50,782 bases of DNA from Thermodesulfobacteriota bacterium (GTDB taxonomy: Bacteria > Desulfobacterota > Desulfobacteria > Desulfobacterales > C00003060). This document shows positions 1-48,000 of the stretch, one piece after another; the stretch's first letter is position 1; every line of letters starts with the position of its first letter. The stretch is from assembly GCA_034189385.1 (NCBI GenBank), contig JAXHVD010000029.1, positions 1-50,782 of the forward strand. The letters run 5' to 3'. Made by a program: the position numbers.

Positions 1-3000
1 ATCGGAATACCCGTCTCCATTCACATCACCTGCCGTGCTCACAGATTGCCCTAAACGGGCATCCCGCTCATTTGACTCTGCGGTCCAGTCGGCAGACGTG
101 CTCAGGCCAGAGGGTGAGCCATGATAGACAAACGCCCCACCCTCATTACTCTCGCCGTTATCGTAAAGGTTAGCCCCGACAATGACATCGGAATACCCGT
201 CTCCATTCACATCACCTGCCGTGCTCACGGAATGGCCGAAGTATGCACCAGCCTGATCAGATTCAGCGGTCCAGTCGGCAGACATGCTCAGGCCAGAGGG
301 TGAGCCATGATAGACAAACGCCCGGCCTTCGTTATTCTCACCATTATCATACCAGCCCGCCCCAACAATAACATCAGAATACCCGTCTCCATTCACATCA
401 CCTGCCGTGCTCACAGATTGGCCGAAGTATGCACCAGCCTGATCAGGCCCCGCAGTCCAAGCATAGGATGTCGCAAGGGGATCCACTGTTATTGGAAAAG
501 CAGCACCCTTCGCATCAATTAGGATGTCAACCATGTTGCCTTCAAGATTGAAACGAGCAGTCAGTGTGCGGTTCTTACTATCAAAGACCTTCAAGTCACC
601 AAATTGCATGACATTGATTCCATCGGCTGTTTGAAAGCTCAACTCCTTGTCTGATTTCATGCACGCCTTAAGATTCCCGGCCAGAGCCATTCTCAGAAGG
701 ATCTCCTCTTCATGATTTGTGACCCAATATTCAGGTGGGACGTGTAAAGTAAACCCCTGCTCCAAGCCTCGTTCGTCGTTCATGTACCATTCCGTAATGG
801 ATCCCCTCGAATATTCAATGCGGTTTTTATGGACACGCAGCTTTGGTGCAATCACAGATTGAAGATGGTCATACAATCCATAACCGATGAGATCAAGGCC
901 CCAGATCCAGTCGTATTTAGCTGAGGTGCGGGGGACCATCCGAACCCCCCCCGAATCAAAATAGGTGCGAAAGTTGTGAGCCCTGTTTGGGGCCTGGTAG
1001 ACGGTCTCTTGGCCTCTAGAATGCACGTCTTCGTCCCCGGTGATTTCGTACTCTGATTGGAGGATTCCTTGTTGAACGGTTGTCAACCAAGAATCAGATG
1101 CTGCGACAGGCAACTTCTCTGAACCTTCTTTGGCCTCGACTCTTCGTTCGTTGCCATTGAGCTCGGGCAATGTAACCGTTGCATTGCACTGTACTGCAAA
1201 GAAGATCAACAATCCCAATCCCACCAAACTTAGCGACAATCTGCATCTCATTGTCTTCCTCCTCTCCTCGGCAAAATGAACTGACAAGTACACGGACTCC
1301 TGAGTCACGAAATCAAACTGCACGACACAGCAGAGCAAGTCCTGTCAGGAGCCAGGTAAACAGAATTCAAGGTGTGTCTCCATGTGCAGACATGAAACCT
1401 TCATAGGCCGACTGATAATGATTTTGAACCCTAGTTCCTCCTCAATCCTTGATCGGCCCAGCTCCAATTTCGCTGGCTTTCTTTGTGTCTCAACTTGGTC
1501 GTTTGCCTTTCCATTGACAAAATGCCTTGACTAAAAACACTGTCTGCCAATAATCCATTCACGAAGTTTAGGGAGCTTGGGCAAACACACAAAAAAAGCC
1601 GAACTGCGCCTTTCATGACCTTCACGATGTCATGCTCGGCAGTCCGGCTGTCTTTGTTTTAGATCAACAGAGAGGTTGGCTTAGTGCCAACAAACAAAAT
1701 CCCAAAGACCCGTGGCTTTCCGCCACCGCCTCACGACGGCTTCGGTTTTGGCTGTTTGAGACTCAGCTAAGCAACTTCTATTTTATTTTGTTGGACTTAC
1801 GTCCTCCAGAATGTTTATTCGCGTACCACACAATGATGAGGAAGTCAATCCCCTCAACCTGCCATTTTTTACGCAAAAACTACCTACGTTCTAATGCAAA
1901 AACTACCTAGTCAGAGGATGGCACCGGTGGAAAGAAATCGGTTTGGTGGGTTACCAACTGTTAGGTGAGGACACTCAAGCAAGAGTCGACGGCAAGATGA
2001 CATTGTTGGAAACGATCGTTAGAAGGTTGCGTGGAGATTGGTTCTGAATACCCGCAAAATATAGGGCTTCCAAAAGGTTACCTTCCATAGCAATACTAAA
2101 CATTCACCGAAACCATCCGGTAGCTGAGATCTGCCTGGCAGAGTTAACATCTGAGGAAGCCTCAGGTGGAAGAGTGCCACTACAATATATGGCGCCTTTT
2201 GAGCGCAAAAGGCAGGGCAAAATGACCCTGCCTCTTTACGGAAACCGACATCTTCTGTGGACTGCTAACGGTGCGATGTTTTCTCCACTCAACTACGGAT
2301 TTGTGCCGGTAACAATGCCGAGCACCTGGCATTTCCCAGACCAAGATTCTGACTTCCCCAAAAACATCCTGCAAAAAAACAGAAAGCTTGATAGTTAGTT
2401 AATAGGATTTGCGGGATTATTGATCCCTTGCTGGCCTACGGCCACTGTGACAGTGTCTTGGGCTGTGTTGCCGTCACTGTCAAACACAACCAAGGTGACC
2501 TCATGGACCCCATCAGGGAGTCGGGCCTTTATCTTGCTACCCCTGTCCATTCCCATCATCTGTTGTCCATAGAACCACATGAACGAAGAGTCCGGCAGTA
2601 TCCTGTCCTCCAGATCCGTTCCCTTAGCTTCAAAGGACACTGTTCCCGCTGAAGGAAATAGGGTCTGTGCCTTCGGTTGGATGATATGAGCCCTTGGGGG
2701 TTTGCCTTCAAGAAAAAAGGTGTCCTCAGAAACAGCCTTAGTTGTGTTGAACCCATCTGTTGCAACCACCATGATCTTTGCCGACTCACTCCCTGCCAGG
2801 AGGGAAGTGTCCACCTCGTATTCATTCCCCTGTACATTCCACGCAACGGGATACCATGAGTTACGTTTTTTCGGAGAGTACAATATGGCAAAGTGCAGGG
2901 AGTCTCCATCCCTGTCCTTGGCGTCCCATTTGATGAATTTGTGCCCACCCCACTGGTCCCCCGGTTGGGGCGACGTAATTCTGACTCTTGGACGACTCTT

Positions 3001-45000: not shown

Positions 45001-48000
45001 GTCAGTGCTAGCGATGGTAGTGGTGCATTGACCTTGACCTCTCAAAGACACTTGAAATAAAGGCGGTGCCGACGTCAAGTGCTGACTGTAATATTCTGAA
45101 GGCATGGCTTGTATCGGAAAATCAGCATTATGAAGCGCCTTTTTCTCGCCCCGACGCCTATCTCGTGTTTGGGGCCATACAGGTTGACTGCATCCTTTTC
45201 GCTGTCTACATGGACCGTGTTTCGGACAGCACTACACATGAACTCTTTCACGCCCCAGGCTGGGATACTTTCAGGCCTCACGCGTTCGGGCGTTATTTCT
45301 CTGATCCACCGCCGGGGGATGATTGGGTGGGGAGTTATGTATTTTGGGTGGATGAGAACGAGAACAGCGTTCTTGACACGGGAGAACCGTCTACAAATGT
45401 GGCAATGCCCTCGGAGTTCATTCAGCAGTTGGACTTTCCCGCAGAAGTATCTATTTCTGAAGGTGTCCACCCAAGCATTACTTTTAGCTCAGTCAGCAAT
45501 GCAGACCGGTATTTGCTCCGAATCTTCAGAATTAACGAAAGCGGTAATCCAGATTCCTCTCTTTTGCTGGATCAGTCAGAGGTGATTGAAGATGATGGAT
45601 CGCCTAGCTATTGCTATCAATATACCGGGGATGCCTTTCAGACGTATGGGTCAACCTTGACGATTGCGATAGAGGCCTATGAGGATGGTCCTTGTGATTC
45701 AGTGGTAAATCGGTCCAGATATTATGTTCAGCACACAGTCCCCGTGACCGGAGCCTGTTGCTTGCCTGACGGTTCGTGTATGGAGGCAATGGCCATTGAA
45801 TGCGCTTCTGCCGGTGGAACCTATCAAGGCGACGGCATTGACTGTGCTTCTGCTAATTGTTCGCTTTGTTTTAGCAATTCGGACTGCGGTCCGGAGTTTT
45901 ACTGCGCAAAGCCTGAAGGCGACTGTGATGGTGAAGGGGCCTGCACTCCGCTACCGGAATTCTGCCCTATGGTAATAGACGAAGTATGTGGGTGCGACGG
46001 AGAAACATATATGAACGGGTGCGAAGCAGCCATGGCTGGCGTCTCAATAGCCCATCTCGGAGCATGTGACGTCGGGACTCTTTGCTCCACCCTTGGTGAT
46101 GATCCACGGCGATATGCGCCGGACATGGACGTTTTCAAGTTCTCCGGAAGCGAGGGAGAGACGGTTACGGTCACTCTGGAATCAAGTCCGCCGGAATACG
46201 GTGCGGGACAACGAGCGGTCTTGATCATAAGAAGCCTTTGCCGTGGTCTTCGCCTCTTCAAGCGGTTCAACGATGCATTGCCCCTTGTGATGACCGTGAC
46301 GCTACCGGTGACAGGGGATTACCATGTGAAAGTCATGGAGGCCCCAGGGAGGGCCGTGATTTGGGGAGAGAAGTACAAGGGAGACTATTGCCTTACTCTG
46401 GAAGCATCTCCATACACAGTGGCCACATTCGTACCAGATCTTGATATAGAATAGCTGAAACGCTCAGACGAAGAAACATCGAACAGAGGTGGGGTCATTT
46501 CGGCCCTGCCTTTTCTCTTTTAGTTCTTGTGGTCCCGACCCACCGAGCAAGAGTAGCGATTGACATCAATCACCAAATGACCTGGATACAGATAACCCTG
46601 TGGTATGTTGATTCCCGAAGAGGAAAAAGAGGTACGCACTTTGGTTTTGCAGTTTCGGCCTGTGGGAAAGAAGGCCTAGGGCATAAGGCGCAAGGCGCGA
46701 GGTTCCAGCAACAAGTAACGGGTAACGGGTGACAAGACCAAAGAAAGAGGAAGGACACCAGAGGACAGACGACAGAGGGCGGCAGGCAGAGCAGAGAGGT
46801 GAATCGGGGAGACGGCGAGAAGAGACGACAGACGACGGAAAAGGGGGAGAAGACAGTGGAAGGATTTAGGGATGTCCATGATTCTATGGTTTTCGTTGGA
46901 TTTGCGAGATATCCTTTAGTAAGGCATGGGGGAGGGGAAGGGGAAAAGGAGGGAGCAGAAACCAGAAAAGTGATGAGGGATGAGGTCCCCCTGGTCTGAT
47001 TCAGTCCTCCCGGATTAGACGGGGCCGTAGGCCCCGCCTAAATAGGAGAAATGTGAGAGACAGATCCCCGCTTGCAGGTTGATTCGGGTGAAACGGGGCG
47101 AAGGCTCCTCACAAAGACTTCATTTTGCATCCTTCTCAAGACACTTTTCCACCCGAATTCTTGTTCGCTGAGCCCTTTGTTTCGGTTTTAACAACTCCTC
47201 GTCTTCTTTGTGTATTCACCCTTTTTCACATAGTAAGGCAGAAAACAGTTTTATCTATCAGAAAATTATGGAATAACATTTCGAAAAAAACGAAATATGG
47301 AATGTCGACCATGGGCTGGCTTAATTATCATCATCTTTCGTATTTCTGGACTGTTATGCCCGTATGGTCATGGGCACGTCCTTTAGTTTTACAGTTTCTT
47401 CGCTCCTGATTTAGGGGAAGCTGTTGAAAGGTTGAAAGGTTTGAACCGATTAAGCGAGCGGATTCTCCACAGGAGAGCTACCGCAGCCCCAGTGGGTTCT
47501 GCCTGACGGCAGTGGTTCTGTCCGTTGGCAGTGCTAGGGCGGCGCAGGCGGCGGGGTTAGCGAGTGTATAGTTAAAATGACAACATCCTTGCGGTGCTGC
47601 GGAGCTGTCGCGTCAGGGAGAACATTCCCTGTGGCTTGCCGCGGGGAGGGTTCAATTTCCATTCGGAACACGAAGGACGGTAGTAAAGATTGTGCTATGT
47701 GAGATAACATCTTTGGAACGCCAAACTTCTTCTGATAAGCAAAGGCAATCTCAGCGCTGCCCAGTGACAAGCTACGTAGTGTTACCCATCTCAATCCGGT
47801 ATCGGTGGCTCAGAACACGGTTTGTCAAAACAGAGAGGTCCTTGCAAACCGGAAACTCAAAAACAGGTCGTGTCGAGTGTAACGACCTGGTACCTTTCTG
47901 ACCAAACTCCATAACTCCGGCCGTGGGTTCATATTTTTCTGACGGCCAGATACCCGGTCTTCTTCACCAAAATGACTACGGGGTCTGGTCTTGACGGGAT

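Follow-up and report, generated by a model that had tools for sequence, protein, structure and literature searches.

Known c-di-GMP-I riboswitch systems

Riboswitches of the c-di-GMP-I (GEMM-I) class have already been described ahead of adhesin and protease genes in the parts of three studies available to us (PMC6456294, PMC6447587, PMC4933901), so that, as the survey's finding had itself conceded, the principle is not new. In Geobacter, deletion of a cyclase lowered transcription of all genes behind terminator-bearing GEMM-Ib switches, according to the available portion of that work (PMC6456294). The roles of the contact bases at positions 20, 47 and 92 have been laid out, and G20 of the c-di-GMP-I aptamer is replaced by A in cGAMP riboswitches (PMC6140456).

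Here we analyse a 50,782-nt window comprising the whole of contig JAXHVD010000029.1 (C22) from a Thermodesulfobacteriota bacterium; C4, C10, C23, C36, and C44 denote other contigs of the same genome. This genome probably contains nine working c-di-GMP-I riboswitches, eight of them copies of one duplicated terminator cassette that would act as an ON switch before genes for exported proteins.

Aptamers and their binding sites

A cmscan search at the gathering threshold recovered the nine RF01051 aptamers reported by the survey: exactly four in the window (E 1e-7 to 7e-6) and nine genome-wide (45.9–76.5 bits), the remainder being located at C4:87150, C10:91616, C23:1070, C36:644, and C44:1165. 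The same search gave no match in any of 14 control genomes, and no c-di-GMP-II riboswitch was found by the search of this genome. Aptamers A (1635..1756, 45.9 bits) and B (9174..9294, 53.1 bits) lie on the minus strand, while C (38000..38116, 50.0 bits) and D (44130..44246, 48.8 bits) lie on the plus strand. Aptamer A has A19, A20, A47, and C92, a GUGA tetraloop, and an extended second hairpin; B combines G20, A47, and C92 with a GUGA tetraloop, and C contains the same three contact bases. Overall, G20, A47, and C92 are found in seven of the nine aptamers and A20, A47, and C92 in two (A and C23:1070); position 47 is thus A, not G, in all nine.

The eight cassette aptamers share a GYRA tetraloop, a second hairpin about 44 nt longer, and a flipped C21:G46 pair that adjoins the ligand pocket, while the 11-nt tetraloop receptor is present only in the C4 copy; we count both the flipped pair and the missing receptor against our reading. 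Because of the long insert, their RF01051 scores are modest (46–54 bits) and their RF03167 scores (43.2–58.6 bits) all fall below the 59-bit threshold. RF03167 outscores RF01051 for six of the eight (55–58.6 bits) but not for the two A20 copies, where the order is reversed (43.2 versus 45.9 bits), and 8 of 19 related loci pass the RF03167 threshold.

Some or all cassette aptamers might sense another ligand, either 3',3'-cGAMP (for the A20 pair) or some unknown signal (for the whole subclass with the flipped C21:G46 pair); there would then be two regulons, or one that does not respond to c-di-GMP. Both the preference for RF03167 in six copies and the related loci above its threshold point this way, as does the ligand of RF03167, which has reportedly been left open; however, six cassette copies keep G20, A47, and C92, and none of the nine aptamers has G47. 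A20 itself recurs in 2 of the 16 parsed relatives (L053 and L059) and is the base seen in cGAMP riboswitches, yet c-di-GMP binding by a Vc2 aptamer persists after the G20A substitution (53 nM), and bispecificity is documented for several natural A20 switches (PMC6140456). The signalling enzymes also argue against a different ligand. The genome encodes two intact REC-GGDEF proteins, and matches to four HD_5 domains, one partial EAL, and about 19 PilZ domains were found, so judging by its gene content it is equipped for both synthesis and breakdown of c-di-GMP. No Hypr GGDEF was found, as the selectivity position is occupied by Asp in the two intact GGDEF domains (signature as given in the available part of PMC6456294), and no cGAMP synthase or SMODS-family cyclase was found in this genome, which is 90% complete. 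We consider another ligand unlikely, and c-di-GMP the probable effector.

One terminator cassette in eight copies

Eight of the nine aptamers are paralogues of a single cassette of about 290 nt, consisting of an upstream block, the aptamer, and a conserved intrinsic terminator; pairwise identity is approximately 68–99% (blastn), extending about 130 nt upstream of the aptamer and ending directly after the U-run. All eight have the same long hairpin and U-run (predicted −27 to −33 kcal/mol), formed with the 3' strand of the aptamer. Cassette A (1590..1883, minus strand) matches the C23:1070 copy at 97% identity over 292 nt, and its terminator (1590..1655, minus strand; predicted −28.6 kcal/mol) has an inner GUGAC..GUCAC hairpin and a terminal U-run. 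Cassette B (9129..9425, minus strand) is 82% identical to the C36 copy over 550 nt, a stretch that takes in the 5' UTR and runs into the opening codons of its gene, and ends in terminator B (9129..9194, minus strand; predicted −29.5 kcal/mol). Cassettes C and D, 98.7% identical over 157 nt, contain terminators at 38096..38161 and 44226..44291 (both plus strand; predicted −29.1 and −29.5 kcal/mol, respectively). Since the 5' arm of the terminator is the aptamer's own 3' strand, all eight copies appear to be ON switches by design, which agrees, for eight of nine switches, with the survey's proposal that c-di-GMP switches these genes on.

Covariation in the terminator was apparent across 27 cassettes from this genome and other MAGs: the proportion of paired cells is 93%, compared with 31–47% when the partner strand is slid, and compensatory changes occur in six terminator pairs (22 cells), a result matched by none of 500 shuffles.

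Several leader elements precede the aptamers. Cassette B includes a mini-ORF encoding MELKFLG (9301..9324, minus strand) with an AGGAGA box in front, and cassette D a GTG-initiated mini-ORF encoding MKLKFLVSA (44100..44129, plus strand) with a GGAGGA box in front, each closed by a stop codon; the same bases form a small hairpin in B and an 8-bp hairpin in D. Immediately 5' of aptamer C is a hairpin, CUCCUGACAGGA..CUGUUGGGAG (37969..37998, plus strand; predicted −18.9 kcal/mol), an element that also precedes the aptamer in many relatives. A putative sigma-70-like promoter, TTGACC-17-TACAAT with an upstream TG, was listed at 44011..44039 (plus strand) for cassette D; for the other three window cassettes the scan listed none, which we count against our reading.

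Repeat-rich DNA less than 1.8 kb from a contig end harbours five of the eight cassettes, and two of the target genes are truncated, so that the picture of copy number and targets is incomplete. This setting, in intergenic DNA near IS200-like genes, is also what would be expected if the cassettes were decaying dispersed repeats that retain an aptamer-like sequence but have lost regulation. The mini-ORF has decayed in three copies, and a decayed, truncated tenth copy (C44:4289-4372), which precedes another secreted-protein gene, clearly lacks the second hairpin and terminator. However, none of the eight full copies has lost its contact bases, either hairpin, the terminator, or the U-run; the differences between them are compensatory, every copy points towards a gene, and other families of the order have conserved the same unit of aptamer and terminator. 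Loss of regulation is accordingly very unlikely.

The survey had also suspected that C22:1635 and C23:1070 are one locus assembled twice. This does not hold: their 97% identity ends at 292 nt, and the proteins encoded downstream are unrelated (BLASTP E 1.1), as are those following the 98.7% identical pair C and D (E 0.63). That the high copy number as a whole reflects a repeatedly assembled locus or contaminant contigs is extremely improbable. Two aptamers are identical, C36 and C44 are short contigs, and estimated contamination is 4.2%, but identity between copies stops within about 300–550 nt, flanking genes differ, four copies occupy one 50.8-kb contig with others on 92-kb and 221-kb contigs, and contig GC content is 49–53% against 51.8% for the genome. 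Instead, as far as the sequences tell, an RNA switch has been copied ahead of eight or more distinct genes for secreted proteins.

Target genes

A same-strand ORF begins 63–520 nt past the aptamer in all nine cases, as the survey had claimed (about 60–520 nt), and the domains it listed (Kelch, FG-GAP, TSP3, S8, and Kazal) were found again, although the Kazal match is weak. Target A (1..1338, minus strand) encodes an FG-GAP repeat protein and is truncated where the contig begins, with a likely ATG at 1251, the Shine-Dalgarno (SD) sequence GGAGAGGAGG, and the N-terminus MRCRLSLSLVGLGLLIFFAVQC. Target B (6719..8971, minus strand) is a Kelch beta-propeller protein of 750 aa whose N-terminus is signal-like, and target C (38572..41229, plus strand; likely ATG 38635, MKHQVLIGLVIAVAITLLLG) is a subtilisin-like S8 protease that also matches PKD and TSP_3 weakly. 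Two genes follow cassette D. D1 (44344..45060, plus strand; likely ATG 44449, MERTTRIATTLVLAYCLLPILVGF) has no Pfam family; as a lead only, its Atlas model resembles N-terminal parts of PKD- and cadherin-domain surface proteins (TM 0.70–0.77). D2 (45066..46454, plus strand), which starts 6 nt past the D1 stop in another frame, is a 462-aa Cys-rich protein with the weak Kazal match, and no signal-like N-terminus was found in it. Outside the window the targets are Kelch plus PKD (C36), FG-GAP plus post_COAP_1 (C44), and TSP3_bac (C4) proteins, and proteins with no family (C10 and C23).

By a crude home-made rule, seven of the nine targets have signal-like N-termini, compared with 664 of 2760 ORFs (24%) in a loose background. 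A hand binomial gives about 1e-3, although the nine cases are not independent because the two Kelch targets are paralogues. The C44 and C23 targets, missed by the rule, show by eye a charged N-region that gives way to a hydrophobic stretch, in line with the survey's description. The products are thus probably exported, and the survey's idea of one regulon-like set ahead of exported-protein genes is supported, with each of the nine targets on the strand of its aptamer.

Distribution and proposed mechanism

Among 401 genomes sampled from the order, 9 contain the platform motif, with eight copies here and one or two in each of the other eight; a reversed-pattern control gave none in the same sample. 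In unrelated Desulfobacterales MAGs the cassette fronts genes for GAF, receiver, PLD, beta-lactamase-like, PEP-CTERM, and other proteins, and its position ahead of cytoplasmic signalling proteins in other genomes counts against our reading. With this query, the Kelch target (B) was not found in any of the 36 congeneric genomes, and the S8 target (C) gave only partial matches in two of the 36; the target set is therefore genome-specific rather than a conserved clade trait. The riboswitch class is an ordinary one, but it has expanded in a modular, lineage-specific manner.

These distributions bear on the proposal that the regulon switches on surface and matrix proteins for attachment to the archaeal partner, and hence consortium formation. 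The exported propeller, protease, and repeat proteins would suit such a role; S8 protease, integrin, and fibronectin domains are among the putative adhesins of syntrophic SRB, and some adhesins are species- or partnership-specific, in the part of Murali 2023 available to us (PMC10553843). As the survey had noted for "riboswitch", that paper contains no occurrence of the word, nor of "diguanylate" or "GGDEF" (PMC10553843), and among the matches listed, literature on SEEP-SRB1/ANME, riboswitches, and c-di-GMP did not treat the topic. Nevertheless, we find the proposal unlikely, given the near absence of the Kelch and S8 targets from congeners, the unrelated genes behind the cassette in diverse MAGs, and other secreted proteins in the window (2395-5388, minus strand, and 34691-36772, plus strand) ahead of which no switch was found.

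For a c-di-GMP-responsive cassette, we propose the following. The 5' arm of the terminator is formed by the 3' strand of the second hairpin plus a GCC tail in which the ligand-contact base C92 lies. When c-di-GMP is scarce, the terminator (about −28 kcal/mol) would fold and transcription would end about 45 nt beyond the aptamer; bound c-di-GMP would keep the strand in the aptamer and prevent the terminator, allowing polymerase to pass a 160–470 nt untranslated region and reach the gene. The two receiver-GGDEF cyclases are the most likely source of the messenger, and the output would be a genome-specific set of exported proteins: two Kelch and two FG-GAP propellers, an S8 protease, and several family-less proteins. 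The cassette has probably spread as a module by duplication or recombination, without the coding regions moving along with it. The ninth switch (C4), which has the form canonical for the genus, would instead act on translation through an anti-SD/SD helix.

Comparison with known systems

The GEMM-I/GEMM-Ib regulon of Geobacter sulfurreducens, as described in the available part of PMC6456294, resembles the present set in its many copies per genome (17 there), in its activating, terminator-type switches (here by design), in the coexistence of G20 and A20 forms, and in fronting extracellular or surface functions. However, its targets are cytochromes and pili rather than Kelch and FG-GAP propellers, an S8 protease, and unknown proteins; it has a Hypr GGDEF, not found here, and tandem pairs, none of which were seen here; and the eight copies here, unlike those of G. 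sulfurreducens, are recent paralogues of one cassette including flanks and terminator (available part of PMC6456294).

The cassette aptamers also share their overall shape, including a modelled closing helix, with RF03167 (the c-di-GMP-I-GGC variant). The consensus there has G47, whereas all copies here have A47, and so we rejected this identity, with all eight scoring below 59 bits.

Clostridioides difficile is said to use class I and class II switches in opposite directions, whereas class I alone was found here. As in its CD2831/ZmpI system, a single messenger would act through riboswitches on surface adhesins and a secreted protease, but that host is Gram-positive and its proteins are sortase-anchored (available part of PMC6447587). 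Bc2 of Bacillus thuringiensis is likewise a class-I switch in the 5' UTR of an adhesin gene (cap, collagen adhesion protein), but at a single locus and with a different platform, compared with the multi-copy cassette here (available part of PMC4933901). The type of control is well known, and one ready-made switch has been copied here on an unusually large scale.

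Nine c-di-GMP-I aptamers and their family assignment

A covariance-model search of the whole assembly (4.13 Mb, 64 contigs, completeness 90.4%) with the c-di-GMP-I riboswitch model RF01051 returned nine matches of 45.9–76.5 bits, all exceeding the curated 35-bit threshold, and these are the nine aptamers of the survey's finding, at the contig positions reported there. The same search gave no match in any of 14 control genomes, and no class-II c-di-GMP riboswitch was found in the genome under study (G000). Exactly four matches lie in the window at the Rfam gathering threshold (45.9–53.1 bits), here labeled A (1635–1756, minus strand, 45.9 bits), B (9174–9294, minus strand, 53.1 bits), C (38000–38116, plus strand, 50.0 bits), and D (44130–44246, plus strand, 48.8 bits). 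The remaining five are on contigs C4, C10, C23, C36, and C44. As had also been claimed, each of the nine is followed on the same strand by an ORF, which starts 63–520 nt past the aptamer, and the domains assigned to the downstream genes stood as well.

The contact bases G20, A47, and C92 (Vc2 numbering) are present in seven of the nine copies; the other two, at 1635–1756 and C23:1070, carry A at position 20, which is the criterion for GEMM-Ib, the 3′,3′-cGAMP riboswitch. The related model RF03167 (c-di-GMP-I-GGC) has a threshold of 59 bits, and the eight copies other than that on C4 score 43.2–58.6 bits against it, all below this threshold, although the three G20 copies of the window score higher there (55.1–58.6 bits, E-value mode) than against RF01051; the C4 copy scores 66.7 bits versus 76.5 bits with RF01051. 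According to the Rfam consensus lines (GACGCGAAg versus GACGCAAAg in RF01051), the defining base of RF03167 is G for A at position 47. Position 47 is A, and the RF03167 base thus absent, in all nine copies as well as in the 16 relatives from other MAGs that were parsed at the binding-site positions (16 of 19, leaving out L051, which is cut by a contig end, the atypical L055, and L060, which has no aptamer). Given this A, the binding-site bases of the nine copies are those of ordinary G20/A47/C92 aptamers, the two A20 copies excepted.

Eight copies of one cassette

The aptamer on C4 (87150–87239) is the sole canonical one, with a length of 90 nt and a GAAA tetraloop. In aptamers of this class the GNRA loop of the first hairpin docks to a second-hairpin receptor, and the 11-nt CCUAAG..UAUGG receptor was noticed, by eye, in the C4 copy only. 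The eight others are mutual paralogues of 117–122 nt with pairwise blastn identities of ~68–99%, and they fall into a group of 121–122 nt (the copies at 1635, 9174, C23, and C36) and a group of 117 nt (38000, 44130, C44, and C10). All eight share a GYRA tetraloop (GUGA, GCGA, or GCAA, so that the first hairpin carries a GNRA loop in 9/9 copies), a first pair that is flipped on both sides (C21:G46 for G21:C46), and a second hairpin that is longer by ~44 nt. Their identity extends ~130 nt 5′ of the aptamer and stops abruptly ~45 nt 3′ of it, directly past a U-run (blastn).

A tenth, decayed copy at C44:4289–4372 (L011) retains the leader hairpin and the aptamer's 5′ half, but its second hairpin and terminator are gone. 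The gene 30 nt past it (C44, 4403–5554) encodes a 383-aa protein that matches no Pfam family and has a signal-like N-terminus.

A composite terminator that shares a strand with the aptamer

Nowhere is the cassette more conserved than in the sequence 3′ of the aptamer. In every copy ..AGCCGRRYUGCC, made up of the second hairpin's 3′ strand and a GCC tail, pairs with ..GGCGNARYUCGGC; the resulting terminator stem encloses an inner hairpin (GUGAC-AUCGUNAAR-GUCAC) and is followed by six to seven U residues in 8/8 cassettes, with predicted folding energies of −27 to −33 kcal/mol (RNAfold). A simple terminator scan missed all four of these composite structures in the window because of the inner hairpin, and they were assessed by RNAfold and covariation in its place. 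In an alignment of 27 cassettes, eight from G000 and 19 from other MAGs, the terminator structure is paired in 93% of cells versus 31–47% when the partners are slid by one to three columns. Compensatory changes occur at six terminator pairs (22 cells), which was matched by none of 500 shuffles, with the counts being inflated by kinship among the rows.

The 5′ arm of the terminator is the 3′ strand of the aptamer in all eight cassettes. Since this strand is common to both structures, they are mutually exclusive, and as a ligand-bound aptamer would leave no terminator and permit read-through, the predicted design of the eight cassettes is that of an ON switch. Between the terminator and the start codon 158–474 nt of leader are left, and the start codons have strong Shine-Dalgarno boxes.

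The 9-nt loop of the inner hairpin (window positions 1616–1632, 9155–9171, 38119–38135, and 44249–44265) reads AUCGUNAAR in 27/27 cassettes from several families of the order, with strict invariance at seven of the nine positions. This conservation exceeds what a terminator needs, and the loop may be a protein site or a tertiary contact. Complementarity of the loop to the first hairpin was sought by eye, and this pairing was dropped for want of covariation. A platform-like 17-mer at C17:10714–10730 was rejected as unrelated; it lies inside a repetitive coding region and has neither an aptamer nor a U-run.

The A20 copies and the cyclic dinucleotides of the genome

In the Vc2 aptamer, one guanine of the ligand is read by G20 and the other is paired with C92, while cGAMP riboswitches have A at position 20 (PMC6140456). 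As described in the same paper, the G20A variant of Vc2 binds both c-di-GMP (53 nM) and cGAMP (120 nM), and bispecific switches also occur among natural A20 forms (PMC6140456). The genome has three GGDEF matches, two of them intact receiver-GGDEF proteins and one degenerate. Both intact domains have Asp at the purine-selectivity position, so that neither is a Hypr cGAMP synthase, whose signature is given as Ser348 together with GGDEF (PMC6456294). No cGAMP synthase, whether a Hypr GGDEF or a DncV-like CD-NTase, and no match to a SMODS-type cyclase was found in the 90.4%-complete genome; its further c-di-GMP components are one partial EAL, four HD_5, and ~19 PilZ matches. Because G20A Vc2 is bispecific and no cGAMP synthase was found in the genome, we read the A20 copies as probably c-di-GMP-responsive with an affinity differing from that of the G20 copies, and regard cGAMP sensing as a minority possibility. 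The G20/A20 dimorphism may correspond to two ligands or to two thresholds.

Elements upstream of the aptamer

Six of 23 parsed cassettes contain a Shine-Dalgarno box and a mini-ORF (M-x-L-K-F/L-L..) that starts 39–40 nt before the aptamer core. Two of these are in the window, in cassette B (MELKFLG-stop, 9301–9324, minus strand) and cassette D (MKLKFLVSA-stop, 44100–44129, plus strand); the others are at C44 (L011; MELKFLA-stop), at C10 (L012; MNLKFL..), and in the relatives L056 (MNLKFLVQP-stop) and L066 (MTLKLLIGVEN-stop). In three further copies of G000 this element is decayed. A small hairpin, with a compensatory change, is formed by these bases too; the element could be a leader peptide or only a hairpin. 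If translated, the conserved Shine-Dalgarno box and mini-ORF (M-x-L-K-F-L), which end at the 5′ edge of the aptamer, may link the folding of the aptamer to translation of the leader. Cassette C (window 37969–37998, plus strand) and many relatives (L046, L048, L050, L052, L057, L058, and L063) have, immediately 5′ of the aptamer, a hairpin CUCCUGAYRGGA..CUGUUGGGAG, which occupies the place of the mini-ORF leader and seems to be an alternative to it.

Among the window cassettes, a sigma-70 scan backed a promoter only for the copy at 44011–44039, and it gave no −10 partner for the TTGACT boxes of A (1843–1848) and B (9382–9387). A sigma-54 reading of TGGCA..TTGA was rejected because of its spacing (by eye).

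The ninth switch and the canonical type of the genus

Matches to RF01051 are found in 33 of the 36 other genomes of the genus, at 0–11 per genome and mostly 75–92 nt long, and the C4 copy belongs to this canonical type. The best-scoring genus matches precede genes for signal-peptide proteins beginning ..VDVTLAWDAN... Just past the aptamer, an anti-Shine-Dalgarno strand, GCACCUCC, pairs with the Shine-Dalgarno box, GGAGGUGC, in a helix that is conserved with compensatory variants over 17 loci among L001/L013 (C4:87087–87239) and L015–L033. Based on this conserved helix, the C4-type platform is predicted to act on translation, as either an ON or an OFF switch.

Other canonical copies in genomes of the genus (L036–L043) precede small acidic proteins (MIEGIGTV..GKVNP..) or ORFs with a flagellar-rod-like or hook-associated look (by eye).

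Modularity and spread of the cassette

Cassettes A and C23 are 97% identical, yet their downstream proteins are unrelated (E 1.1); likewise, cassettes C and D are 98.7% identical, yet precede unrelated proteins (E 0.63). The leaders of B and C36 (window 8971–9425, minus strand, versus 515–1061 of L010, the C36 locus) share 82% DNA identity over 550 nt, a stretch that takes in the 5′ UTR and the initial codons, while identity between the two Kelch proteins is only 40%, which points to gene conversion of the leader or to fast divergence of the mature Kelch proteins.

The platform motif (searched with at most one mismatch; the reversed-pattern control gave 0) occurs in nine of 401 genomes sampled across the order, with eight copies in G000 and one or two in each of the other eight. 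An exact-match scan of public genomes found 19 loci in Desulfobacterales MAGs, 17 of which have an Rfam aptamer match. The genes downstream in those MAGs are mixed and encode small signal-peptide proteins, PEP-CTERM (two), Lcl_C, phosphonate-binding-like (two), PLD, beta-lactamase-like, DJ-1/PfpI, GAF (two), and receiver-domain proteins, and in one case a cytidylate-kinase-like protein followed by a PAS sensor. In the genus itself, aptamers with a long insert (113–117 nt) occur once each in G004, G006, and G007, of which only G006 has the exact platform motif; the terminators of G004 and G007 are different or degenerate. The cassette is thus a subclass that is rare in the order yet established there, and G000 has multiplied it and placed it solely ahead of predicted exported proteins.

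Five of the eight cassettes lie at most 1.8 kb from a contig end, amid short dispersed repeats, and two target genes run off contig ends, which makes both the target list and the copy number minimum estimates. These repeats (60–380 nt, 70–90% identical) flank the cassettes, in the window at 1870–2100, 5600–6050, 34320–34475, 36910–37020, and 41440–41555, and are also found on at least 15 other contigs. A gene for an IS200-type transposase is at 6177–6602 (minus strand), and an ORF resembling it lies past the Kelch gene on C36.

Target proteins and their neighbors

The targets in the window are an FG-GAP protein (A), a 750-aa Kelch protein (B), an S8 protease (C), and a protein of no known family followed by one with a weak Kazal match (D). 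In 10/10 cases the ORF next downstream begins, by eye, with a charged segment that leads into a hydrophobic stretch, and a fixed, home-made rule called seven of nine targets signal-like, versus 664 of 2760 background ORFs. At E ≤ 1e-10 the Kelch target was not found in any of the 36 other genomes of the genus, and the S8 target has only partial matches, in two of the 36. For the 618-aa target on C10, the best Protein Atlas score was 0.80, below the meaningful level.

Two proteins of 997 aa (2395–5388, minus strand) and 693 aa (34691–36772, plus strand) have signal-like N-termini and no Pfam family, and each is encoded just upstream of a cassette; neither gene has a riboswitch of its own. Between the riboswitch units is a mobile-element-like block (13571–32028) encoding a DNA methylase-like protein, GmrSD, Replic_Relax, ParB, ParA, and an integrase, as well as PIN/MazE toxin-antitoxin pairs and NrdD with a radical-SAM activase. 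A TPR-sulfotransferase gene (41787–43553, plus strand) separates the S8 unit from cassette D, and an HDOD-Ser/Thr kinase fusion (48343–50067, plus strand) lies at the end of the window.

Possible roles and comparison with known switches

It is conceivable, though on balance unlikely, that the cassette serves as a portable "plug-in" leader, copied ahead of newly gained or fast-evolving genes for exported proteins, which would subject a surface proteome particular to this genome to a single second messenger. The survey's finding went further in proposing that the regulon controls adhesion to an archaeal partner. Murali 2023 names S8, integrin, and fibronectin domains among the putative adhesins of syntrophic sulfate-reducing bacteria, and its text mentions neither riboswitches nor diguanylate cyclases. 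We consider control of partner adhesion improbable.

For riboswitch biology, the cassette shows cleanly how, in nature, an entire switch is reused as a module, in which the flanking block, aptamer, and terminator move together, as is visible from near-identical copies ahead of unrelated genes and from one copy in decay. For sulfate reducers, it provides a short list, derived from sequence, of exported proteins expected to rise jointly with c-di-GMP. Moreover, the two aptamer types, G20 and A20, are open to in vitro testing without culturing the organism.

That c-di-GMP riboswitches precede genes for surface functions, adhesins, proteases, and pili among them, is already well described. Examples include CD2831 and ZmpI of C. 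difficile (PMC6447587), the Bc2 switch ahead of cap in B. thuringiensis (PMC4933901), and the surface functions behind such switches in Geobacter (PMC6456294), where the same ON design by exclusion of aptamer and terminator is described for GEMM-Ib. What is new here is the occurrence of G20 and A20 forms side by side with no cGAMP synthase detected, some conserved details that are unexplained, and the scale and the recent modular spread of one complete cassette.
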